Below are positions 1 to 20,861 of a DNA stretch of 36,209 bases, in pieces (the stretch's first letter is position 1; every line of letters starts with the position of its first letter). Both the position numbers and the translations under genes were made by a program. A model generated the notes under the pieces. It did no database searches, was not told where the DNA came from, and saw only the letters and a list, made by a program, of their open reading frames with translations. Where the stretch lies: positions 1 through 36,209 of the IMG/VR virus record IMGVR_UViG_3300026224_000019. One strand, given 5' to 3'. The DNA is from a virus (taxonomy: Duplodnaviria; Heunggongvirae; Uroviricota; Caudoviricetes).

Positions 1-1119
1 TCAAATAACCAACTTAACCCATTCCTGACCTCGAGTATCGTTATAGCGATCGGTGGTTGCCTGGATTTTATGTCCTAGTAATGTTTTTGTATCGATACCC
101 TGTGCACGGTACAGCCGTTCTGATAGAGAGCGTTGTTCATGAAATGTTGGCGGTGTTTTTCCGGCTGGTGGAATTATTCCAGCCAGATCCCGCGCTTTGG
201 CAAAGTAATCGCTCAGGTTGTCTTTACTCATTGGTTTTGGTTGTTTCTGGTGCCGACTATGAATCAGGTATGGACTCAATATTTTGTCCCTGCATCCATT
301 AATCACTTCTTTTAGCGATATCCCGATGGCATCACAGCGTAGCGTAAGCGGTAACGCAAGACGCATTCCAGTTTTTCCCTGGGTAATATGCAGGTGATCG
401 TTCCACACATCTGAAAAACGCATGTGGCAAATATCATCACGGCGCTGGCCAGTAACAATCGCAAGAAGCATTGCGTTACGGATAAAGTGTTTTTCAGGCG
501 TTGCGTTGTAAATTTTTTGCCAGTCTTCCAGAGTGAGCCTGGCTCTGGTTACTTTAGGGATCGGTTTACGGGTAGCCTCCGGAGGATTCCATCCGGGAGG
601 GACTTCCCCTGCATGCTGTGCTTCTTTATAAATATCAACCCATAATCCGCGATTTACTCTCGCTGTGCTGACCATGTCTTTATCCAGCCACTCGTCCAGT
701 ATTAATGCAAAGTCTCTTACTTCCAGTTCTTTCAATGGGTGGTTTCCCAGACGGGAAACCAGGAATGCAGCCATTCGCGCTTTTTCTTTGTGGGTTGTAG
801 CTGCAATATCTCCATTTTTCAGCCGCGCGTCCTGTATTTTCAGATATCGATCAACCCATGCCTTTAATCTGATACCCCGACGTTTTGTTGCTGACGGGCT
901 TTCATCAATTTTGCGCATGAAATATTCGGCTTCTGCTGCAGCTATTCGCTGATTGGCTGTGGAAGCGATTCTTTCAGCTTTGCCTTTGTCTGTTCCGAGT
1001 CCGTGAAATTTTCCAGTCACAGGGTTTTTATACTGGTAGTAAACTCTGCCAGTTCTGCGATCAAACTTTTCGTAAAGACCGGCTACGTCAGTGCTGTTTT
1101 TTCGTGGCCTCGGTGACAT
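1..1119 (-). CDS. int: Tyrosine recombinase, lambda-family phage integrase (372 aa)
   Basis: Full ORF with stop at window position 1-3. C-terminal catalytic region resembles lambda Int (LAIVTGQRRDD, PPTFHEQRSLSERLY, LLGHK...TTDRY). Sits at the prophage edge next to an Xis-like gene. Confidence 0.9.
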   Translation of the reverse strand: MSPRPRKNSTDVAGLYEKFDRRTGRVYYQYKNPVTGKFHGLGTDKGKAERIASTANQRIAAAEAEYFMRKIDESPSATKRRGIRLKAWVDRYLKIQDARLKNGDIAATTHKEKARMAAFLVSRLGNHPLKELEVRDFALILDEWLDKDMVSTARVNRGLWVDIYKEAQHAGEVPPGWNPPEATRKPIPKVTRARLTLEDWQKIYNATPEKHFIRNAMLLAIVTGQRRDDICHMRFSDVWNDHLHITQGKTGMRLALPLTLRCDAIGISLKEVINGCRDKILSPYLIHSRHQKQPKPMSKDNLSDYFAKARDLAGIIPPAGKTPPTFHEQRSLSERLYRAQGIDTKTLLGHKIQATTDRYNDTRGQEWVKLVI

Positions 1120-1357
1120 GAGTTAAAATCTCCTTCAGTGCATCATCATCGCCAGTATGAATTTCCGGCGCAATTCCCGTTTCACCAGGTCCAACAAATA
1201 CTGCCCGGCGATCTATCAGCCAACGTCCACGAATTTTTTGTGGTCTTGGTACGATGTATCCAAGTTTTCCGTATTTCACCAGGGTAGTGTTTGTTATTGG
1301 GAGACTGAACCGTTTGGGTTTCCACTCATCGAGCGTTATCAGGTACTGTTCGCTCAT
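1088..1357 (-). CDS. xis: Excisionase, lambda Xis-like (about 89 aa)
   Basis: MSEQYLITLDEWKPKRF...VPRPQKIRGRWLIDRRAV parallels lambda Xis (MYLTLQEW...PPPVKDGREYLF). Start placed at the ATG with GGAG 8 nt upstream; the track start at 1366 is a GTG lying directly against that GGAG. Overlaps the int start by 32 nt. Confidence 0.7.
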   Translation of the reverse strand: MSEQYLITLDEWKPKRFSLPITNTTLVKYGKLGYIVPRPQKIRGRWLIDRRAVFVGPGETGIAPEIHTGDDDALKEILTHVTEATKKQH

Positions 1358-1418
1358 GGTTATCACTCCGGAACGCGCCAGTTGCAGAATACCAACTACA
1401 ACTGGCGACGGTTGAACA

Positions 1419-3899
1419 TTAAAAATCAGTCTGATTCGGGATCAGTTTTTGTATCGTGGCTGTAACGTATTTCGCCTGGTGACGGGCATCATCCAGCGCA
1501 TGGTGGCGCACGCCTTCAAATGGAATAACTGTTCTGGCATCGAAGCCGATAGTTTTTCCCAGTTCAACGATTGTACGTACATCGCGATCGTTGTAGTAAC
1601 GCCACGGGCAGGGGATGTTCAGGCGTTCGTACGAGGTTCGTAAAATAGTGTTGTCGAAAGTTGCACCATTGCCCCATACCTGAACGAATTTTTCATCTGA
1701 GTATTCGTTGATGAACTCCCGAAACCGCGAAAGGGCATCCTTCAGTTTTACCTGGTCTGTTAAAATGGCAGCTCTGGCTTCACTGGACTGCTTCAGCCAC
1801 CATTCGATGGTGCCACCGTCAGGAACAGCCCCTGTATTCATTGCGTCAGTCAGACTGATAACGATATAAAATACTGGCCCGATTTCCCCTGTTTGTGGGT
1901 CGAAGAAAACCGCACCAATAACCACGATGGGCGCATTGGCGTTGGTTCCCATTGTTTCAAGGTCGATCATCAGGTGGTACCACACTCTGCTGGTGGATGT
2001 GATAATGTGATGACCGTTCACCGCAATTAAGGGATCTGCCGTCTCGCCAGTTTTATTATCGCTGGCGTGGTCCTGAGCGCTGCCAGCATTCTTCTTGTGT
2101 GAATGTTCAGCGCCTTCCATTTCCTCCGGATCATCTTCCTGAACTTCAACCTGATACTCTTCATCGAATGTTTCCTGGTATGTTGCGTCGCCCATCACCG
2201 CGCCACAATCAGGGCAGTTGCCGCCGCCGGTTTGACCGCAGGCGGTGCAGACTTTTTCCGGTTCCTGTTGCGCTACTGGCTCAGGTTGTTTCGTTTCTGG
2301 CTCGTTTTGTAACGCATTTGGGCCGTTTTGTTCCGCTTTCTGGTCGTTCTGTTCCGTTTCTTGCTGGTTCTGATTCACTGAATCGCGGGTTTCAATCCCC
2401 TTCACCCATTTCGGATCATTCGGGTCGCTAATCCCTGCAACAAATTCACCACGTGATACAGCAAGCAACTTATCGGCGTCAGGCTGGCTGATATTGGCTG
2501 CCTGCATAATTTTGTTTACTTCGTCAGCGGTAACTTTTACCGGCTCTGGTTGTACGGTCGTGTCAGATGCACCAGTATTTTGTTGTGAACCTGAGTACGT
2601 GCCGTTTTTACGTGCGAAGTATTCCTCTTTTGTGATTTCCGTAGCTCCCAAAGCCAGCGCTTTTTCCAGACCAGAAAGTTTGTTTGCACGACCATATTTT
2701 TCGCCATCCTTATCGGTGAAAAGGAAGTAGAACGGCCCCTCACGCTCTACAGATGGTTCAGTTTCCAGCGTGCTTTCATTTTTTTGGGTATCAGATACTT
2801 CAGTTTCCACTGCATCAGTTTGTGCTGCTGACGGCTGGAGAATATCAGCAGTGCTCTGGTCTGTTTCTTCATCCTCAAACACGCCCTTTGTCGCCAGGTA
2901 TTCAGTGATGTATTTGTTCAGTGCCACGGGATCCTTGTGAATGTCGAGCGGACGCTCACGGACAAGACCAAAAATAGTCTGACGGTTGTAGCGAATGGCA
3001 TCAGGCTGTTTGCGCATTGATGCGGAAATGCGCTTCCAGTCTTCGCGGTCTTTGGCGATAACTTCATTTTCTGCCCAGCGAAGGATGTTACCGTCAATGC
3101 TTCCGGGGTCCGTATCACCAGGCCAGAGATAGCAGGCCAGCTCCCTGTCCAGCGCTTTCCATGTCTGCTTATATTCGCGACGAATGGCAGCAGTGGCAGG
3201 GTTGATTTTTTCTGCTGAGTTTTCAGTGTGCTGTCGGTTGACTCTGACGCGGGCAAGGTCAACAACAGACGTGTATTTTCCAGTCTCTTTGCGCTCTGCG
3301 TCCTGCCGTTTTTTCCAGTTACGTAATTCAGCCTGAATTTCGGGCCATTTGGCACTCGGCTTGCATTTGTGCTTAACCCATCCGATAGCGAACAGTTTGC
3401 GTTCCGGATACATAGCGTTAATTTCAGGCGTTTTCATCAATGCCTCAACGATATGCCCGTCGAATGTTGCCATGTCCTCCTGCAACAATTCCTGTGCACT
3501 AATCACCATATCAACGGTGATGTTTTCACATGTACCGAACTTAACCAGGACCGCGTTCTGTACTTCAAGGGACAGCTTGTCAAAATTGACGTTCATCGGA
3601 TCGGATTCTGGTTCGACCGGAATAAAGGAAGCGGATTCCTCATCCCAGCGGTTTTCCAGCATATATTCGGTATCCCAGGAGTCGATGGCAGGGCGGGGCA
3701 TGCCGGGTTTATCCTCGCAGACAAGAAATTTATAAGCGCAGTCCTGAGCAGCCGGATATTGCTCCAGGAATTGCCAGGTAAATTTGGCACGGGCGCGACG
3801 TTCGTCGCCGGCTTCAATGGCAGTGGCTACAGCGACTGCACCTTCTTCCTTTATTGCCTGTTCGTCCGGAATGGCGGCGCAAATAAAGACTTTACTCAT
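1419..3899 (-). CDS. Large prophage exonuclease (826 aa): C-terminal DnaQ-like 3'-5' exonuclease domain, N-terminal ~550 aa of unknown function with a Cys4 zinc-ribbon motif
   Basis: C-terminal MIDLETMGTNANAPIVVIGAVFFD ... HHALDDARHQAKY matches the DEDDh exonuclease motif pattern. CTACGQ...CPDCG zinc ribbon mid-protein. Occupies the recombination-gene position next to int/xis. Confidence 0.7.
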   Translation of the reverse strand: MSKVFICAAIPDEQAIKEEGAVAVATAIEAGDERRARAKFTWQFLEQYPAAQDCAYKFLVCEDKPGMPRPAIDSWDTEYMLENRWDEESASFIPVEPESDPMNVNFDKLSLEVQNAVLVKFGTCENITVDMVISAQELLQEDMATFDGHIVEALMKTPEINAMYPERKLFAIGWVKHKCKPSAKWPEIQAELRNWKKRQDAERKETGKYTSVVDLARVRVNRQHTENSAEKINPATAAIRREYKQTWKALDRELACYLWPGDTDPGSIDGNILRWAENEVIAKDREDWKRISASMRKQPDAIRYNRQTIFGLVRERPLDIHKDPVALNKYITEYLATKGVFEDEETDQSTADILQPSAAQTDAVETEVSDTQKNESTLETEPSVEREGPFYFLFTDKDGEKYGRANKLSGLEKALALGATEITKEEYFARKNGTYSGSQQNTGASDTTVQPEPVKVTADEVNKIMQAANISQPDADKLLAVSRGEFVAGISDPNDPKWVKGIETRDSVNQNQQETEQNDQKAEQNGPNALQNEPETKQPEPVAQQEPEKVCTACGQTGGGNCPDCGAVMGDATYQETFDEEYQVEVQEDDPEEMEGAEHSHKKNAGSAQDHASDNKTGETADPLIAVNGHHIITSTSRVWYHLMIDLETMGTNANAPIVVIGAVFFDPQTGEIGPVFYIVISLTDAMNTGAVPDGGTIEWWLKQSSEARAAILTDQVKLKDALSRFREFINEYSDEKFVQVWGNGATFDNTILRTSYERLNIPCPWRYYNDRDVRTIVELGKTIGFDARTVIPFEGVRHHALDDARHQAKYVTATIQKLIPNQTDF

Positions 3900-11524: not shown

Positions 11525-11814
11525 CTGGCCTGAAGCATTCACAACGGTAGGAATTGCGATGGCAGTGGCGCTGGTGGTGTATTCGATTTGCCGCTGGGGA
11601 TAAAAACGGTTTGCGGGAAAAAGGGAGTTAAGTAAAATTGCTGCGGGTGCTTGAGGCTATCTGTCTCAGGCATGAACACCAAAAGGCAGATAGAGAAAAG
11701 CCCCAGTTAACATTACGCGTCCTGCAAGACGCTTAACATTAATCTGAGGCCCAATCTATGTCTCACAAATGTAGGTTAGCCTCTTACGTGCCGAAAGGCA
11801 AGGAGAAGCAGGCT

Positions 11815-11970
11815 ATGAAGCAGCAAAAGGCGATGTTAATCGCCCTGATCGTCATCTGTTTAACCGTCATAGTGACGGCACTGGTAACGAGGAAAGACCT
11901 CTGCGAGGTACGAATCCGAACCGGCCAGACGGAGGTTGCTGTCTTCGTAGACTACGAATCTGAGAAGTAA
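11815..11970 (+). CDS. hokD: Hok/Gef-family type I toxin (51 aa), HokD-like
   Basis: MKQQKAMLIALIVICLTVIVTALVTRKDLCEVRIRTGQTEVAVF is the Hok signature (single TM, conserved Cys, RxxxxEV). AAGGAGAAG RBS. In-frame upstream extension from 11758 could be the mok-like leader frame. Confidence 0.8.
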   Translation: MKQQKAMLIALIVICLTVIVTALVTRKDLCEVRIRTGQTEVAVFVDYESEK

Positions 11971-13469: not shown

Positions 13470-13844
13470 ATGCGTATAGAGTTTGTTTTGCCTTACCCGC
13501 CGACGGTGAACACCTACTGGCGACGTCGTGGCAGTACATATTTTGTATCAAAAGCCGGTGAGCGTTATCGCCGTGATGTGGCGCTCATTGTTCGCCAGCA
13601 GCGGCTGAAATTAAACCTGTCCGGAAGGCTGGCGATAAAGATTATTGCAGAGCCACCGGATAAGCGCCGCCGTGACCTGGACAATATACTGAAAGCACCA
13701 CTGGATGCGCTGACGCATGCGGGACTGCTTATCGACGACGAGCAGTTTGATGAAATTAATATTGTGCGCGGACTGCCCGTTCCCGGTGGTCGGCTGGGCG
13801 TGAAGATTTACGAAATAATGCATGACGGGCAGGTCAAAAAATGA
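13470..13844 (+). CDS. rusA: Holliday junction resolvase RusA (124 aa)
   Basis: PYPPTVNTYWRRRG..., EPPDKRRRDLDNILKAPLDALTHAGLLIDDEQ matches RusA catalytic motifs (DRRRRDLDN, D-x-L). Confidence 0.85.
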   Translation: MRIEFVLPYPPTVNTYWRRRGSTYFVSKAGERYRRDVALIVRQQRLKLNLSGRLAIKIIAEPPDKRRRDLDNILKAPLDALTHAGLLIDDEQFDEINIVRGLPVPGGRLGVKIYEIMHDGQVKK

Positions 13845-14662
13845 AGCTGGAAGATTTACCGAAATACTATTCCCCAAAATCGCCTGGCCTGACTGATGCA
13901 TCCGCCTCGACGTCAAAAGATGCGCTGAGCATCACTGATGTGATGGCTGCGCAGGGTATGACACAAAACCGGGCTGAGATGGGGTTTTCTGCGTTCCTGG
14001 GGAAAATGGGCATTAGTATGAATGACAGGGCGCGGGCAACAGAATTACTGGCAGATTATGCATTAAGTCAGTGCGATCGCGTGGCGGCGTTAAGAAAACT
14101 TCCGGTAGAAATAAAACCGGCAGTGATGCGCATTATGGCTTCGTACGCTTTTGAGGATTATGCCCGCAGTGCAGCGAGTAAAAAGCAATGCCCTTGTTGC
14201 CGAGGGGAAAAATTTATTGAAAGCGAGGTTTTTACAAACAAGGTTCAGTATCCGGATGGCAAGCCGCCAGTATGGGCAAAGTGTACGAAAGGTGTGTATC
14301 CGTCTTACTGGGAAGAATGGAAAAAAATCCGGGAGTTGGTGAAAGTTTCCTGCCCGGTATGCAAGGGGAAAGGAGAGATTTCCACTGCCTGTAAAGATTG
14401 CCGTGGACGCGGTGTTGCCATTCATCGTGAAGAGTCGGAAAAACAGGGCGTACCAGTTTTCAGAAACTGTCAGCGTTGTGGTGGTCGTGGCTATGAAAGG
14501 CTGCCATCAACGGAGGCATTTAATGCCATATGCAAAGTGACGAGTGCTATCACGCTTGATACGTGGAAAAAATCAGTGAAATGCTTTTACGATACATTGG
14601 TGGTTCGGTTTGACATTGAAGAGGCATGGGCAGAGCAGCAGTTAAAGAGGGTAACGCGATAG
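13841..14662 (+). CDS. Late antiterminator Q-like protein (273 aa)
   Basis: Position directly after rusA and before a terminator and the lysis genes. Multiple CxxC zinc motifs (CPCCRG, CPVCKGKG, CKDCRGRG, CQRCGGRG). Confidence 0.65.
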   Translation: MKLEDLPKYYSPKSPGLTDASASTSKDALSITDVMAAQGMTQNRAEMGFSAFLGKMGISMNDRARATELLADYALSQCDRVAALRKLPVEIKPAVMRIMASYAFEDYARSAASKKQCPCCRGEKFIESEVFTNKVQYPDGKPPVWAKCTKGVYPSYWEEWKKIRELVKVSCPVCKGKGEISTACKDCRGRGVAIHREESEKQGVPVFRNCQRCGGRGYERLPSTEAFNAICKVTSAITLDTWKKSVKCFYDTLVVRFDIEEAWAEQQLKRVTR

Positions 14663-14744
14663 TGTTGTTGATTTTTCCCGAATCTGTGGTAAATTTGCCC
14701 TAACGATGGGCGTTTTATGCCTGACGTTAGAAGAATCTTTACAG

Positions 14745-14771
14745 CCCGCCATCGAGCGGGTTTTGTTGTTT
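14745..14771 (+). terminator. Candidate tR'-like intrinsic terminator downstream of Q
   Basis: CCCGC-CATCGA-GCGGG followed by TTTTGTTGTTT; a second GGCGGGCC-TTTTT element lies about 40 nt further on. Confidence 0.5.
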
Positions 14772-14936
14772 CTGAGGCTCGCTATGGCGGGCCTTTTTCA
14801 TATCCGCGCCACGCCCGGCGCACATCAAAAAACCACAGAGCCTTTCAGGGGTGAGCTTACGGGATGGTCAGTGTGACTTTCTCTGTGGGCTGGTCACTCC
14901 TGGGCGCAGGCTCACCCACTAAAAGGAAAAGTCACG

Positions 14937-15362
14937 ATGTTTGGTATTTTCAAAAAGAAAACCCGCAAGGCCATTACTGAAGTGAAGAAGATGGAGAACC
15001 GCGACGCAGTGGAGGCGACCGTCTGGGGCGCGTATTCCATTGCATATGCTGACGGCACCTGTGACGCGAAAGAAATCGCGGTACTGGAGAAAACCATTGC
15101 GGCACTTCCTGCCTTTGCGCCGTTCTCCGGTGAGATTGCACAAATGAGTGCAAATATCCGCGCCCGTTATGAAGCGTCGCCGCGCTCTGCCAATGCTGAA
15201 GCCCTTCGCCAGCTGGCTGATGTTGCCGGTACTGATGATGCAGTTAATGTACTGTGCCTGTGTCTGGATATCGCAGACCAGGATGGCATTGGTCCGGATG
15301 AAGAAGCGCAGCTCAAGAAAATTGCTCAGGCGCTGCAGTTACCGCTGGAGCAGTACCTGTGA
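14937..15362 (+). CDS. TerB-like domain protein (141 aa)
   Basis: Two repeats of the TerB pattern (IAYADGTCDAKEIAVLEK; CLDIADQDGIGPDEEAQLKKIAQAL) and a TerB-like N-terminus. Confidence 0.6.
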   Translation: MFGIFKKKTRKAITEVKKMENRDAVEATVWGAYSIAYADGTCDAKEIAVLEKTIAALPAFAPFSGEIAQMSANIRARYEASPRSANAEALRQLADVAGTDDAVNVLCLCLDIADQDGIGPDEEAQLKKIAQALQLPLEQYL

Positions 15363-15511
15363 AAAGTGCGCGCCTTGTGCTGGCTGCCATCCTGCTGTTT
15401 CTGGTAGTGGCGGTGGATTTCACCGGACGGCTGATGTCGGTGCTGGCAGATGGTGTGCTGGTGGCGATGGCGCTGGTCGTGCTCCGGCCTTTACTGCGTA
15501 AATCTGAATAA
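15359..15511 (+). CDS. Small hydrophobic membrane protein (50 aa)
   Basis: GTG start overlapping the TerB-like stop (GTGA). Almost entirely hydrophobic (LVLAAILLFLVVAV...VLVAMALVVL). Below the track cut-off. Confidence 0.4.
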   Translation: MKSARLVLAAILLFLVVAVDFTGRLMSVLADGVLVAMALVVLRPLLRKSE

Positions 15512-15559: not shown

Positions 15560-15582
15560 GGGCCGCTGGTGGCCCTTTTTTA
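15560..15582 (+). terminator. Candidate intrinsic terminator closing the cargo pair
   Basis: GGGCC-GCTGGT-GGCCC followed by TTTTTTATTT. Confidence 0.4.
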
Positions 15583-15600: not shown

Positions 15601-15993
15601 ATGTCTGAACCCTTATCCGGTTCCGGCACGGCTGCGGCGCTCGGTGGGGCGACGGTGTACGGGCTGTTTACCGGAACGGATTTCGGGATTGTGTTTGGTG
15701 CGTTCGCCGGGGCGTTATTTGTGGCAACGATGCCGCAGACGCTTTCAGCCTGGCGTGTTGCGGCGCATTTTCTGGTGTCGTTTATCGTGGGCGTACTGGG
15801 GGCAGAGGTTCTGGCATCCTGGCTGGTAAAGCATACAGAGTTTGACGGTGCACCTGTCGACGCATTGTGTGCAGTACTGGTGTCTGTATTGTCGGTAAAA
15901 GTGCTGTCCTTTGTGCACAGGCAGGACGTTATATCACTGATGTCCTGTCTGCTCTCCCGCCTGAAGAGTGGTGGAGGCGACAATGTTAAGTAA
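15601..15993 (+). CDS. Holin-like membrane protein (130 aa)
   Basis: ATG with AGGAGA RBS; multiple predicted TM segments; first gene of a cluster ending in an endolysin. Confidence 0.5.
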   Translation: MSEPLSGSGTAAALGGATVYGLFTGTDFGIVFGAFAGALFVATMPQTLSAWRVAAHFLVSFIVGVLGAEVLASWLVKHTEFDGAPVDALCAVLVSVLSVKVLSFVHRQDVISLMSCLLSRLKSGGGDNVK

Positions 15994-16258
15994 CCTTCCC
16001 GGATTACTGAATGTGGCGTTATGCACGGTTATCGTGCTGACGCTCTTTTTTTATCGTCGCCGTGATTCCAGACATAAACCGCTGATGTCATGGCTGGCCT
16101 GGCTGCTGATGTTGCTTTATGGCTTTGTTCCACTCAGCTATCTGTGTGGTCGCCCGTTAGAAACAGACTGGTTCCAGGTGTTTTTTAACCTGCTGTTCTG
16201 CGTGCTGGTGATACGCGCACGCGGGAACGTCACAAAAATCTTTCCATTGTTGAGGTGA
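15983..16258 (+). CDS. Second holin-like or antiholin-like membrane protein (91 aa)
   Basis: Two or three hydrophobic segments; start overlaps the previous gene; immediately precedes the endolysin. Confidence 0.5.
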   Translation: MLSNLPGLLNVALCTVIVLTLFFYRRRDSRHKPLMSWLAWLLMLLYGFVPLSYLCGRPLETDWFQVFFNLLFCVLVIRARGNVTKIFPLLR

Positions 16259-16260
16259 AT

Positions 16261-16638
16261 ATGTCGGGTAAATTCAGATTTAGTCGTCGCAGCGAAAAGA
16301 ATCTGGAGGGCGTCAAACCACAGCTGGTTGCTGTCGTTCGCCGTGCCCTTGAGCTGACGGAGGTTGATTTCGGTATTACGGAAGGCCTGCGCAGTAAGTA
16401 TCGCCAGAAACAGCTGGTCGCAGAAGGTAAGAGCCAGACCATGAACAGCCGCCACCTGACCGGTGATGCGGTGGATGTTGTGGCCTACATTGGCAGCCAG
16501 GTGTCATGGGACTGGCCTCTGTACGAGAAAATCGCGCAGGCATTTAAGCAGGCTGCCGCAGAGCTGGGAACCGCCATTGAATGGGGCGGGGACTGGAAAA
16601 CACTGAAAGACGGGCCTCATTTTCAATTGAAGCGATAG
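16261..16638 (+). CDS. Endolysin, peptidase M15 family (125 aa)
   Basis: SRHLTGDAVDVV and GPHFQL match the zinc-binding H-x6-D ... H pattern of M15 (VanY-like) cell-wall peptidases. Confidence 0.7.
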   Translation: MSGKFRFSRRSEKNLEGVKPQLVAVVRRALELTEVDFGITEGLRSKYRQKQLVAEGKSQTMNSRHLTGDAVDVVAYIGSQVSWDWPLYEKIAQAFKQAAAELGTAIEWGGDWKTLKDGPHFQLKR

Positions 16639-16708
16639 CTTGCAAAACATACAGGGCCGCCATGAGCGGCTTTTTTATTGCTCAAAAAACGAAAGAACGG
16701 GGGTACGT

Positions 16709-16990
16709 ATGTACGCACTGAAAAAAATCACGGTAACTGAAGATGGTCGTCAGGTTGAAGAAGTGCATGTTCTGGGGAATATGTATCGCCTGGAATTTTA
16801 CCCGCGCAACACTCACCTTGCTGCCCAAGTGGAGTATTGCCGGGATGGAAATGTGCCATGCATTTTGGTGGAAAAAACGGATGAAGCCTACATCACCACG
16901 CTGGCTGGTGACACGGTGCGTTGTATCTGTCGCGGTGACAGTAAAGCCAGGGATGAAATAGCCAGATGCCGCACCCAGGGCAGTAAATAA
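16709..16990 (+). CDS. Hypothetical protein (93 aa)
   Basis: Internal ATG of the track ORF; followed by a strong terminator. Confidence 0.45.
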   Translation: MYALKKITVTEDGRQVEEVHVLGNMYRLEFYPRNTHLAAQVEYCRDGNVPCILVEKTDEAYITTLAGDTVRCICRGDSKARDEIARCRTQGSK

Positions 16991-17001
16991 AAAAAACAAA
17001 A

Positions 17002-17035
17002 CCCCGGCTGCTGGAACAGTCCGGGGTTTTGAGTT
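17002..17035. terminator. Bidirectional intrinsic terminator
   Basis: CCCCGG-13 nt loop-CCGGGG, A-run upstream and TTTTGAGTTTT downstream. Confidence 0.6.
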
Positions 17036-17122
17036 TTCACGTCAGAGAGGAAATTGTGAGTAGTGAGTACGGAGAAAATCCTCGTGGGAAAGTATAAAAG
17101 ATTCTTTTTGAGGTTGTCCATT

Positions 17123-17236
17123 ATGAAAGGTATTGAAGTGGAAACTCCCGCGAGCCTTGATTTGACAAGGGCTGCGGCCTTTGCAATTCGCCTTGTGGCG
17201 GTCGCTGTTCTGATTTGGGCTGTGCGTTGGTGGTGA
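17123..17236 (+). CDS. Small membrane protein (37 aa)
   Basis: C-terminal TM (AAAFAIRLVAVAVLIWAV); stop overlaps the next ATG. Found by manual translation. Confidence 0.35.
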   Translation: MKGIEVETPASLDLTRAAAFAIRLVAVAVLIWAVRWW

Positions 17237-17237
17237 T

Positions 17238-17420
17238 ATGACGCGAAAACACTGGACACACAGAATGCCACGAACTGCGGCGAAATGGGCACTGGTAGCG
17301 ATACTGGTGCCTTTTTTATTGGTGGGATGCGTTAGCCTGGATAAAGCGCGCCAGCTTTTCGATACCGCTTCTCTGGTCTGTGAAATTGTCGACGGTGTCC
17401 GGCAGTGTCTGCAGAACTGA
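17238..17420 (+). CDS. Lipoprotein (60 aa), possible o-spanin-like or Bor-position cargo
   Basis: Signal peptide with lipobox LLVGC; several Cys in the mature part; located after the lysis genes. Confidence 0.5.
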   Translation: MTRKHWTHRMPRTAAKWALVAILVPFLLVGCVSLDKARQLFDTASLVCEIVDGVRQCLQN

Positions 17421-17595
17421 TCGCCTGTAAGAGCAGAATATTTTGCTGAAAAATGAAGGGGGGCGCCAGCGTCCGGAAAGCATGAAATTCTGTGTTTGTG
17501 GCTACTCAATAAAATAAATTCTTTCTGTCGCCGCGAATACTCAAATGTTGATCAGTGCCCGCTGCGGCGACGGGCTTTGATATCAGGAGACGATG

Positions 17596-17991
17596 ATGAA
17601 AAAAACAGAAAGCAAACCGATTGTAATTGGTACCGCTGCTGTTCCGTTTAAGTTTGAGTTGTCACAACTGGTGGAGGTACGTATCAGTGATGAATGGGGG
17701 GAAGTGAGGGGGCGTGCTCAGTATGCAGGTAGTGAAAACCAGTACTTGATCCACTACAAAGCAGCTGATGGTCGCGCCATGACGGAGTGGTTTGGTGAGT
17801 CAATGCTGGAAGCAACAGAAGATGGTCGTTATCCGGGCTGTCCGGTATTTGCCTGCATGGAATTGCCGGAAGGCGCAGTAGTTGAACTGCAGCCGGGTGA
17901 GATGTTCGTGATGACAGACATCATTGATGGTAAACCGCAGTATTCGCGTATTGAAATGAATGGTAAGAGTGCTCGCCTGATTCGTGAGTAA
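17596..17991 (+). CDS. Hypothetical protein (131 aa)
   Basis: ATG with AGGAGA RBS at 6-nt spacing; isolated gene between lysis and packaging modules. Confidence 0.5.
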   Translation: MKKTESKPIVIGTAAVPFKFELSQLVEVRISDEWGEVRGRAQYAGSENQYLIHYKAADGRAMTEWFGESMLEATEDGRYPGCPVFACMELPEGAVVELQPGEMFVMTDIIDGKPQYSRIEMNGKSARLIRE

Positions 17992-18744: not shown

Positions 18745-20861
18745 TGCCTGTGCAGGCGACCGCCAGATCGTTGAAACTGGATACGGGCCAGTTAATTAAA
18801 GCGCCGCGCAGGATGCCTGTTGCCGAAGCGGTACAAAAATTTATGCGAGTCCCTACATCTGGTGGCAACTCTGTTCCGTGGGATCCGCTGGTTGCACCGT
18901 ATGTGATTGAACCCATGAACTGCCTGTCGTCCCGTGAGTTTGATGCGGTTGTTTTTGTTGGCCCTGCCCGTACGGGCAAGACTAACGGCCTGATTGATGG
19001 CTGGGTGGTTTATAACATTGTTTGCGATCCGTCAGACTTTTTGCTGGTGCAGATGACGCAGGATAAGGCGCAGGAGCACTCCAAAAAGCGCCTGGCAAGA
19101 ACATTTCGTTGCAGTCCGGAGGTCAGAAAACGCCTCAGTCCACGCCGCAACGATAACAACGTTCATGACAAATATTTTCTGTCAGGCAGCTTTCTGAAAA
19201 TCGGCTGGCCCTCCATCAATGTCATGTCATCCTCTGATTTTAAATGTGTGGCGCTGACTGATTACGACCGATTTCCTGAAGATATCGATGGCGAAGGTGA
19301 TGGTTTCTCCCTGGCTTCAAAACGTACCACCACATTTATGTCAGCTGGTATGACGCTGGTGGAGAGTTCTCCCGGGCGTGAAATCACAAACAGCAAATGG
19401 CGCAGAACGTCACCGCATGAAGCCCCGCCCACCACGGGGATCCTTTCTCTGTATAACCGTGGCGATCGTCGTCGCTGGTACTGGCCTTGTCCGGATTGCG
19501 GTGATTATTTCCAGCCATCGATGGAGGCTATGACGGGGTATCGTGACAATCCTGATCCTGTAAAAGCCAGTGAAGCGGCTCATATATTATGCCCTCATTG
19601 TGGCAACCGAATCACCGCAGACATGAAACGTGAACTGAATGGTCGCGGCGTCTGGTTGCGTGAAGGTGAGCAGATTGACAGAGAAGGGAATGTTACCGGA
19701 ACGCCACGTCATTCAAGGATAGCCAGCTTCTGGATGGAAGGCCCCGCTGCAGCCTATCAGACCTGGGCGCAACTGGTTTACAAACTACTGACTGCTGAGC
19801 AGGAATATGAAGCCACAGGCAGTGAGGAAACACTGAAGGCGGTGATTAACACCGACTGGGGATTGCCTTATTTGCCTCGTTCCGCCATGGAGTTGCGCAG
19901 TGCAGATGTTCTGATGCAGCGGGCTGAGGATTACGGTAAGCGCCTGGTACCGCCGAAAGTGCGTTTTCTTATTGCGGCTGTGGACGTGCAGGGCGGGAAG
20001 AACCGACGGTTTGTGGTGCAGATTATTGGCTATGGCGAGGACGGCGAACGCTGGCTGGTGGACCGTTATAACATCCGACAGTCATTGCGTTGCGATGAAA
20101 ATGGCGAAGCATTACCTGTGCATCCCGGAGCTTACCCTGAAGACTGGCAGTTGCTGGTCACCGATGTACTGGAGAAAACGTATCCGCTCCAGTCCGATCC
20201 GGCCCGCAGAATGCCTGTACTGGCAATGGCGGTGGACAGTGGTGGTGAGGACGGGGTGACGGATAACGCCTATAAATTCTGGCGAAAATGTCGTCAGGAT
20301 GGACTGGGGCGACGGGTTTTTCTGGTAAAGGGAGACAGCACGAAACGCCAGAAAATTATTACCATCACACACCCGGATAATACCGGGCGAAGCGATCGCC
20401 GTGCGGATGCTCAGGGGAAGGTGCCGGTATATCTCCTGCAGACAGATCTGCTGAAAGATCAACTAAGCAATAACCTGCAACGTGAAATGCCCGGACCGGG
20501 CTACATTCATTTTCCTGACTGGCTAGGGGAGTGGTTTTATGAAGAGTTGACCTATGAGGAACGTGGTGCTGACGGGAAATGGCGCAAGCCGGGAAAAGGG
20601 AATAACGAAGCGTTTGACCTTTTTTGCTATGCCCATGCCGTCGCCATTCTGCGTGGCTATGAAAAAATCCGTGACTGGAGCAACCCTCCCCAGTGGGCAA
20701 GAGGGCAGGATGCTGACGCGGGGACTTCGGCAGACAGACGTTCTTCCGACACAGTGGACAAGAAAAACGTTGTCGGAAGAGATGAGCGGCAAAAAGCAGC
20801 GTCGCCGGAAGCGTTATCCGGAAACTGGTTATCACTACCCCGAAACGGAGGATGGTTGTGA
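18744..20861 (+). CDS. Terminase large subunit, lambda GpA family (705 aa)
   Basis: Walker A VFVGPARTGKT; CPDCGDY...CPHCG zinc ribbon; size and order as lambda A. Confidence 0.9.
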   Translation: MPVQATARSLKLDTGQLIKAPRRMPVAEAVQKFMRVPTSGGNSVPWDPLVAPYVIEPMNCLSSREFDAVVFVGPARTGKTNGLIDGWVVYNIVCDPSDFLLVQMTQDKAQEHSKKRLARTFRCSPEVRKRLSPRRNDNNVHDKYFLSGSFLKIGWPSINVMSSSDFKCVALTDYDRFPEDIDGEGDGFSLASKRTTTFMSAGMTLVESSPGREITNSKWRRTSPHEAPPTTGILSLYNRGDRRRWYWPCPDCGDYFQPSMEAMTGYRDNPDPVKASEAAHILCPHCGNRITADMKRELNGRGVWLREGEQIDREGNVTGTPRHSRIASFWMEGPAAAYQTWAQLVYKLLTAEQEYEATGSEETLKAVINTDWGLPYLPRSAMELRSADVLMQRAEDYGKRLVPPKVRFLIAAVDVQGGKNRRFVVQIIGYGEDGERWLVDRYNIRQSLRCDENGEALPVHPGAYPEDWQLLVTDVLEKTYPLQSDPARRMPVLAMAVDSGGEDGVTDNAYKFWRKCRQDGLGRRVFLVKGDSTKRQKIITITHPDNTGRSDRRADAQGKVPVYLLQTDLLKDQLSNNLQREMPGPGYIHFPDWLGEWFYEELTYEERGADGKWRKPGKGNNEAFDLFCYAHAVAILRGYEKIRDWSNPPQWARGQDADAGTSADRRSSDTVDKKNVVGRDERQKAASPEALSGNWLSLPRNGGWL

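Follow-up and report, generated by a model that had tools for sequence, protein, structure and literature searches.

A lipoprotein gene in the Rz/Rz1 position of phiP27-type lysis cassettes and its candidate role at the outer membrane

Genes of the lysis cassette

The window analysed here is a 36,209-nucleotide (nt) stretch of DNA of a tailed virus (IMG/VR record IMGVR_UViG_3300026224_000019), and coordinates refer to it unless another sequence is named. Between 15601 and 17420 it carries six open reading frames (ORFs), all on the + strand, which encode two holins, an endolysin, a 93-amino acid (aa) protein (orf93), a 37-aa membrane peptide and a 60-aa prolipoprotein (Table 1). Judged by its gene content, this is a late lysis cassette of the known phiP27/Stx2k type. 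The lipoprotein is the subject of this analysis: it stands where a related locus has the spanin genes Rz/Rz1, and it is a candidate for the protein that opens the outer membrane. An earlier account of this DNA, made from the letters alone (the sequence-only reading), had already placed all six ORFs correctly and had recognised a lysis cassette with two holin-family proteins and an M15 endolysin, identities that Pfam and PHROG matches establish.

The arrangement is that of the phiP27-type holin-holin-M15 cassette, as the PF16931 and PF05449 genes are adjacent (the start of holB overlaps the end of holA by 11 nt), a Peptidase_M15_4 gene follows and a late antiterminator gene precedes. A profile search of the PDB placed the endolysin nearest to ChiX (5OPZ, E 8e-43), 8Q2G and the T5 endolysin (2MXZ, E 1.5e-23). 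No signal or signal-anchor-release (SAR) segment and no N-terminal hydrophobic segment was found in its sequence, and the enzyme should therefore depend on holes made by the holins. The Q gene lies ~0.9 kb upstream and the cassette sits within a Q-dependent late operon; on the + strand between Q and the terminase gene no sigma-70-like promoter was found. For the part behind the endolysin gene, the order given by the sequence-only reading (orf93, terminator, peptide, lipoprotein) stands, but that account had missed a second terminator-like hairpin directly after the endolysin gene. The hairpin after orf93 is strong and was seen directly in the sequence, while the hairpin scan returned a partial stem. 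The L33-like ORF forms the right border of the slot and is found downstream of the lipoprotein in many loci and downstream of Rz/Rz1 in strain 99-3165.

Table 1. Features of the lysis cassette and its flanks (window coordinates unless a locus is named)
Feature	Position	Strand	Description
Late-gene antiterminator Q, lambdoid	13841-14662	+	Pfam Antiterm PF03589, E 4e-51
Terminator-like hairpins	14743-14795		just 3' of Q
holA	15601-15993	+	130 aa; PF16931 Phage_holin_8, E 5e-22; phrog_198 'holin', E 9e-41; hydrophobic segments detected
holB	15983-16258	+	91 aa, three transmembrane segments; PF05449 Phage_holin_3_7, E 6e-24; phrog_217 'holin', E 2e-39
Endolysin, M15 L-alanyl-D-glutamate endopeptidase	16261-16638	+	125 aa; PF13539 Peptidase_M15_4, E 1.5e-12; phrog_465 'endolysin', E 6e-75
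Terminator-like hairpin and T-run	16653-16680 (hairpin 16653-16673)	+	directly 3' of the endolysin gene; 8-bp stem, 5 GC pairs, tail TTTATTGCTC
orf93	16709-16990	+	93 aa; phrog_33497, E 2e-51, function unassigned
Intrinsic-terminator-like hairpin and T-run	~17000-17037	+	3' of orf93; G+C-rich, AACCCCGGCTG...CAGtCCGGGGTT
Tail-anchored membrane peptide	17123-17236	+	37 aa, MKGIEVETPASLDLTRAAAFAIRLVAVAVLIWAVRWW; C-terminal hydrophobic segment; phrog_4493, E 7e-16, function unassigned
Small tail-anchored peptide sites	17123-17236 (window); 2513-3062 (L004); 3501-3614 (L178-L185)
Prolipoprotein	17238-17420	+	60 aa; signal peptide 1-30; lipobox LLVG|C31 (Cys codon 17328-17330); phrog_7528, E 7.5e-38, function unassigned
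phiP27 L33-like ORF	17593-17991	+	132 aa; phrog_1935, E 9e-66, function unassigned

Phages phiP27 (genes L28-L30) and phiSTEC1575-Stx2k carry the same families in the same order (PF16931, PF05449, M15, lipoprotein) at ~91% nucleotide identity. The Stx2k phage also has orf93 and the 37-aa peptide, whereas in phiP27 the insert between the endolysin and lipoprotein genes is a 90-aa antisense ORF; the window phage differs from both upstream, where TerB/DUF3927 genes take the place of stx. The phiP27 and Stx2k records annotate the holins and the endolysin and label the three downstream genes 'hypothetical'. In phiP27 (NC_003356.1, locus L186, 20630-20861) the RefSeq gene L32 covers the lipoprotein gene but in the wrong reading frame, and in 'Actinobacillus phage vB_Apl-pPE4' (PP818812.1, L092, 4522-4701) the lipoprotein gene is unannotated; the stated host of that record is doubtful, since its DNA is ~94% identical to E. 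coli prophage DNA. Just upstream of holA-holB-M15, phiSTEC1575-Stx2k (L001, 3065-3629) has a class II S-type holin and a YdfR-like gene, which are apparently what is left of another lysis module, of the lambda type, that has no lysozyme.

The lipoprotein and its position across related loci

The mature part of the lipoprotein, CVSLDKARQLFDTASLVCEIVDGVRQCLQN, is 30 aa long and includes the conserved residues Cys48 and Cys57. Among 19 homologues the lipobox Cys and C48 are invariant and C57 is kept in at least 90%. The family motif is about C-x15-17-C-x8-9-C, in precursors of 54-62 aa with a mature part of ~30 residues. Asp at position +2 is what decides in the standard Lol sorting rule, and lipoproteins without it are destined for the outer membrane. 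This family has Val or Ala at that position (Val in the window), so that an outer-membrane location is expected; a lipobox without Asp at +2 is also the signal of outer-membrane spanin subunits (o-spanins). The mature part contains no Pro, has a net charge of -1 (-4 to +3 in the family) and a moderate amphipathicity (hydrophobic moment, muH, ~0.3). The AlphaFold2 (AF2) model is a single long helix of low confidence, with a predicted local distance difference test score (pLDDT) of 68, and the mature protein is probably helical; it would measure ~4.5 nm as a helix and ~10 nm at most when extended. Shine-Dalgarno-like sequences lie 5' of the long-form start in all lineages.

A word-indexed search returned only close relatives (at least 67% identity), from Escherichia, Salmonella, Citrobacter, Cronobacter and Yersinia. 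When 1.84e9 representative proteins were searched with a profile, 23 matches were obtained, all within the family, which therefore appears to be small. Its divergent members (for example ...LVGC AAYEKACVWLGIAAEMCNTIDKIKERCND) are ~45% identical in the mature part and keep the lipobox Cys, a second Cys 14 to 17 residues on and a third another 9 to 10 on. The profile search against PDB chains gave no meaningful match for the lipoprotein, and searches of Pfam, NCBIfam, PHROGs and PADLOC with the lipoprotein, the 37-aa peptide and orf93 returned only PHROGs of unknown function. In the literature search we found no paper containing the signal-peptide sequence and none joining phiP27/Stx2e with holin, endolysin and lysis.

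Within the signal-peptide codons lies a terminator-like hairpin (17287-17321, + strand) with an 11-bp stem and the loop GCGA, followed by TTTTTTATT; its minimum free energy (MFE) is -20.9 kcal/mol (z = -3.6 against shuffles). The hairpin is retained in the divergent homologues L173, L170 and L177, in L168 two base pairs have both partners altered, the hairpin of L171 is a different one and L175 has none. It may be the reason why the signal peptide is better conserved than the mature part, or it may attenuate transcription that is not modified by Q.

For the comparison, 80 IMG/VR loci were collected via the lipoprotein and 80 via holB, and the components were mapped by tblastn. Counts refer to the lipoprotein-anchored loci with at least 2.2 kb of upstream DNA (n = 68) and to the holB-anchored loci with enough downstream DNA (n = 75). 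A scan of species-representative genomes gave two loci only, and the comparison draws mainly on IMG/VR prophage contigs, with metagenome contigs for the divergent members. In every one of the 68 lipoprotein-anchored loci the lipoprotein is preceded by holA, holB and an endolysin, which is of the M15 type in 44 and of the GH108+PG_binding_3 type in 24; Rz/Rz1 was found in none of them when the whole locus was inspected. The lipoprotein gene starts at most 20 nt past the endolysin stop in 30/68, as it does in E. coli W and M19, and one to three small tail-anchored peptides occupy the gap in 35/68, with none in the other 33.

Seen from holB, the lipoprotein is present in 72/75 loci. Two have neither the lipoprotein nor Rz/Rz1, one of which (L104) carries a convergent moron after the endolysin gene, and one (L141) has a canonical embedded Rz/Rz1 pair (145 aa and 71 aa) that starts 16 nt past the M15 stop, exactly at the start position of the lipoprotein gene of E. 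coli W. Across the ~150 loci the lipoprotein and Rz/Rz1 never occur together. A second line of evidence for the equivalence of the slot comes from its borders: the junction 'peptide stop TGAnATG start' is common to the step from peptide to lipoprotein in the window and to the step from peptide to Rz in strain 99-3165 and in prophages of enterohaemorrhagic E. coli (EHEC), and the L33-like gene lies downstream in both arrangements. Comparison of these loci thus puts the lipoprotein in the Rz/Rz1 slot, an equivalence of position only. In the prophage that carries the heat-labile enterotoxin LT-IIb (KU052038.1, L091, 4255-6226), eltIIbA and eltIIbB directly follow holA-holB-GH108, at the usual site of the lipoprotein, and there is no lipoprotein.

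The divergent members widen this picture. Their lipoprotein follows a PF05106 (holin_3_1) holin and GH108 in L168 (a convergent YfbU gene comes next), a PF05106 holin and M15 in L171 (lambdoid with Q), a PF05106 holin and an M15-like endolysin in L173, and PF16931 and PF05449 holins with GH108 in L175, which is Mu-like (GemA, Mor, Mu portal). In all four the lipoprotein gene starts 0-10 nt past the endolysin stop or overlaps it, and no membrane-protein neighbour was found beside it. That its position is kept while all other components of the cassette are swapped is the strongest argument for a lysis gene over a passenger.

The passenger reading nevertheless has to be weighed. It holds that the lipoprotein is non-lysis or regulatory cargo of a phage that truly has no spanin, be it a Cor/Llp-like receptor-masking or exclusion lipoprotein, an envelope modifier or a modulator of lysis timing, and that the outer membrane fails passively or by shear. 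It would fit the lack of an assigned function for the lipoprotein in every library, its absence from two relatives and the LT-IIb prophage, and the nature of the gap behind the endolysin gene, a preferred site of unrelated inserts (orf93, KilA-N, the 90-aa antisense ORF, toxin genes). However, a gene that stays directly behind the endolysin gene while holins, endolysins and phage types change, in many cases overlapping it or starting no more than 10 nt later, does not behave like a moron. Nor would cargo be expected to avoid Rz/Rz1 throughout and to be replaced by it in L141, or to lack a promoter-like site of its own, and no Pfam similarity to the Bor, Cor or Llp families was found. The suggestion of the sequence-only reading that the lipoprotein could be Bor-like cargo is likewise not borne out by Pfam, NCBIfam or PADLOC matches, by any promoter-like site on the + strand or by the tight late-lysis coupling in every lineage examined. 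We therefore regard cargo as unlikely and the lipoprotein as a likely component of the lysis cassette; it is very probably a lysis-related, spanin-like element.

Candidate partners

If the lipoprotein were the o-spanin of a conventional two-component system, an inner-membrane subunit (i-spanin) should accompany it. The sequence-only reading had seen no recognisable spanin pair, and our scans agree. In a six-frame lipobox scan of the whole 36 kb the ORF at 17238-17420 was the sole credible candidate, the other pattern match being a 28-aa ORF on the minus strand (11784-11870). The scan of the window for ORFs with hydrophobic segments gave no type-II (N-terminally anchored) protein of i-spanin size besides obviously spurious antisense frames, tblastn with lambda-type Rz and Rz1 gave no match in the window, and the complete phiP27 genome contained no type-II membrane candidate. 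A linked type-II i-spanin was thus found neither in the window nor in the phiP27 genome nor in the neighbourhoods of the divergent members. In the STEC383 prophage, which is 99.5% identical over window positions 16640-17600, the Prokaryotic Genome Annotation Pipeline (PGAP) labels no 'lysis protein'. The lipoprotein itself has no Pfam match to Rz (PF03245) or Rz1 (PF06085) at E<=1, and the hhalign alignment with Rz1 was restricted to the signal peptide (probability 14%). Neither of the outcomes that would have spoken against a lysis role, homology to a characterised non-lysis protein or a canonical spanin elsewhere, was seen.

The homologue in phiP27 has been catalogued before. In a survey of 528 spanin systems phiP27 was assigned a 'separated' two-component spanin whose subunits are both singleton families, with a combined periplasmic length of 62 residues, the shortest of all (Kongari et al., 2018; PMC6139136). 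The o-spanin of that entry (20706-20861) is the homologue of the window lipoprotein, and the i-spanin is a 64-aa ORF with a TTG start at 20348-20542 (Kongari et al., 2018). This i-spanin lies antisense to the 90-aa ORF, which matches phrog_36812 (E 5e-20), and itself matches no PHROG; the window does not have it, and only a handful of related loci do. The call looks spurious.

An o-spanin could still work with a partner that is not adjacent, such as a phage protein encoded elsewhere, a holin, or an inner-membrane or periplasmic protein of the host. Consistent with this, the survey classes the phiP27 protein as an o-spanin by a method that distant i-spanins escape, and conserved periplasmic Cys residues like those of the lipoprotein are typical of spanin subunits (Kongari et al., 2018). 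However, the type-II ORF of suitable size that such a reading would look for is found in neither the 36-kb window nor the whole phiP27 genome, and the published candidate shows the features described above. The lipoprotein also occurs beside unrelated holins (PF05106 alone, or PF16931 with PF05449), so that no particular holin can be the partner. We consider a distant partner improbable.

The 37-aa peptide is encoded immediately before the lipoprotein. The sequence-only reading had suggested that it may form an unconventional spanin pair with the lipoprotein; the spanin-like character of the lipoprotein is upheld by its Rz/Rz1 slot and its catalogued phiP27 homologue, but the pairing is not, as about half of the cassettes do not have the peptide and it also precedes Rz/Rz1. 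In such a two-component mini-spanin the peptide would be a type-I protein (N-out, C-in, Pf3-coat-like) with ~16 periplasmic residues. Its acidic N-tail and basic C-tail fit N-out insertion, the two genes are translationally coupled (the lipoprotein start lies 1 nt past the peptide stop, TGAtATG), and a type-I protein has been allowed as an i-spanin (Kongari et al., 2018). Against this, the 33 cassettes without any small peptide, the 30 with the lipoprotein directly beside the endolysin and all divergent lineages do without the peptide. The combined periplasmic length of ~46 residues (30 from the lipoprotein) falls short of the range of 62-300 residues and hence of the survey minimum of 62. Moreover, near-identical peptides (86-97% identity) end 2 nt before complete Rz/Rz1 pairs in EHEC prophages, where no third subunit is needed and where the lysis genes are a class II holin and R lysozyme; the peptide is therefore not the i-spanin of the lipoprotein, and a mini-spanin of this kind is very unlikely.

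On sequence comparison the peptide instead appears to be one of a class of optional accessories that precede whichever outer-membrane lysis gene is present. Many E. coli prophages, those with EHEC S/R/Rz cassettes among them, carry one to four small tail-anchored peptides between their endolysin and outer-membrane lysis genes. The homologues P0124 and P0133 occur in ~1000 contigs each (P0133 in 2585 blocks of the contig index), and related gap peptides are pepB (phrog_1115) and pepC (phrog_4906). An alternative GTG start at 17063 would extend the window peptide to 57 aa; codon-position variation in the aligned loci does not distinguish the 37-aa from the 57-aa form because the sequences are too similar. 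Lcc6 of LambdaSo is a precedent for a small membrane protein with a role in lysis.

The remaining ORF of the cassette, orf93, is an optional insert in the same gap and not part of a spanin; it is present in 7/68 lipoprotein-anchored loci. Its AF2 model (pLDDT 88.8) has seven strands and one helix, which predicts a soluble all-beta protein, and Foldseek found no fold match for it in the PDB at E<=0.001. Homologues occur in Proteus, Xenorhabdus, Providencia and Edwardsiella. Terminator-like hairpins flank orf93 on both sides, as in a moron. Two further features lie outside the cassette. A TerB-family gene and a DUF3927 gene (14937-15362 and 15359-15511, + strand; phrog_1470 'TciB-like' and phrog_632 'tellurite resistance') make up a two-gene moron downstream of Q and upstream of the holins, which ends in a terminator-like hairpin of its own (15560-15575), and a Hok/Gef-family toxin ORF (11815-11970, + strand; PF01848, E 4e-23) lies at the early/late junction of the prophage.

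Proposed function and comparison with known systems

A stand-alone role of the lipoprotein would fit into lysis as follows. By homology, HolA and HolB permeabilise the inner membrane, and the signal-less M15 endopeptidase thereby reaches and cuts the peptidoglycan. The lipoprotein precursor would be exported by Sec, lipidated at Cys31 and cleaved, and Lol would sort the mature protein to the inner leaflet of the outer membrane. Expressed late, it would accumulate there as a proline-free, moderately amphipathic helix of ~30 residues, and DsbA would presumably form a disulfide from its two conserved Cys, either within a molecule or between molecules. After loss of the wall, when turgor apposes the membranes, the tethered helix could destabilise the outer membrane without a phage-encoded inner-membrane partner. 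It might do so by insertion into, or fusion with, the inner membrane pressed against it, as a minimal one-sided spanin, or by perturbing the outer membrane at its inner leaflet, much as colicin-release lipoproteins act. The sorting, the disulfide and the mode of membrane disruption we infer; what the genes encode and the conserved place of the lipoprotein gene are shown by the comparisons.

Several points weigh against this proposal. A mature protein of 30 residues cannot bridge a periplasm of ~20-25 nm, and the mechanism of spanins can therefore not be transferred directly. The amphipathicity of the lipoprotein barely exceeds that of shuffled controls (p 0.008-0.5), and AF2 models the mature part with low confidence (pLDDT 60-67). 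The equivalence of the slot comes from a single Rz/Rz1-bearing relative and the shared peptide junction, and the ~150 loci, being closely related E. coli prophages, do not count as independent. The two of 75 relatives and the LT-IIb prophage that have neither the lipoprotein nor Rz/Rz1 suggest that the gene is perhaps dispensable, or else that these prophages are defective. Lastly, spanin-less phages exist and make up 13% of those surveyed (Kongari et al., 2018).

Taking both sides together, the case that the lipoprotein carries out the outer-membrane step without a phage-encoded partner is, from what its sequence and position suggest, evenly balanced. It is possible, though a little less so, that the family is a further partner-less class of phage outer-membrane disruptor, in which a single lipid-anchored, disulfide-bearing helix does the job of Rz/Rz1 and in which the 'shortest known two-component spanin' of phiP27 is a solo protein. 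The cassette type is already known, as are the flagging of the phiP27 lipoprotein as spanin-like and part of the two-component idea. What is new is the comparative evidence, as far as sequences can provide it, for a conserved stand-alone lipoprotein family that replaces Rz/Rz1 positionally and whose partner appears to be neither the published i-spanin nor the 37-aa peptide.

How spanin-less phages breach the outer membrane is an open question, with only spanins and the phiKT disruptin established so far. The lipoprotein occupies the spanin slot across about 100 related phages and would be a handy subject, being tiny, resident in E. coli and naturally swapped with Rz/Rz1. Should the proposal hold, no smaller outer-membrane lysis factor would be known, and the lipoprotein would help to find out how little suffices to destabilise the outer membrane, which matters for engineered lysis and for making Gram-negative bacteria sensitive to endolysins. 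The finding would also correct the entry in the spanin catalogue and improve the annotation of ~6% of complete E. coli genomes, including those with the Shiga toxin phages Stx2e and Stx2k, in which lysis governs toxin release. If the lipoprotein is inactive alone, the cassette is an ordinary, described phiP27-type module with an uncharacterised passenger gene.

Of the known systems, two-component spanins such as lambda Rz/Rz1 share the small outer-membrane lipoprotein with periplasmic Cys residues, encoded last in the cassette and in the same slot. However, Rz1 has 10 Pro in 40 residues, whereas the window lipoprotein is proline-free, predicted to be helical, without an i-spanin and too short for the periplasm. 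The window endolysin is close to ChiX of the Serratia ChiWXYZ type 10 secretion system. That system exports chitinases and includes a spanin pair, ChiY/ChiZ; the context of the window cassette is, in contrast, an ordinary prophage late operon.

Among single-protein systems, the unimolecular spanin T1 gp11 resembles the lipoprotein in being one gene of the lysis cassette with an outer-membrane lipoprotein signal, but in proteins of its type a C-terminal transmembrane domain serves as the inner-membrane anchor and the periplasmic domain is rich in beta structure (Kongari et al., 2018). The mature window lipoprotein has 30 residues and no transmembrane domain; no hydrophobic segment follows Cys31. 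The disruptin phiKT gp28 is likewise a small single protein that replaces the spanin at the outer-membrane step, and is described as cationic and antimicrobial-peptide-like (bioRxiv 10.1101/515445), whereas the window lipoprotein is lipid-anchored and near-neutral, with a net charge of -1. Instead of the small, strongly cationic amphipathic protein expected of a disruptin, the window thus encodes one with a lipoprotein signal, this near-neutral charge and a muH of ~0.3.

Colicin lysis or bacteriocin-release lipoproteins (PF02402) have a similar precursor, a lipobox and a mature part of ~28-33 residues, and they permeabilise the envelope without a partner, in dependence on outer-membrane phospholipase A (OMPLA). 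They have no conserved Cys pair and belong to SOS-controlled plasmid colicin operons, not to the position after a phage endolysin, and the window lipoprotein has no Pfam match to PF02402 at E<=1. For a lipoprotein that acts on its own they are still the nearest functional analogy, and size and lipobox agree with it.

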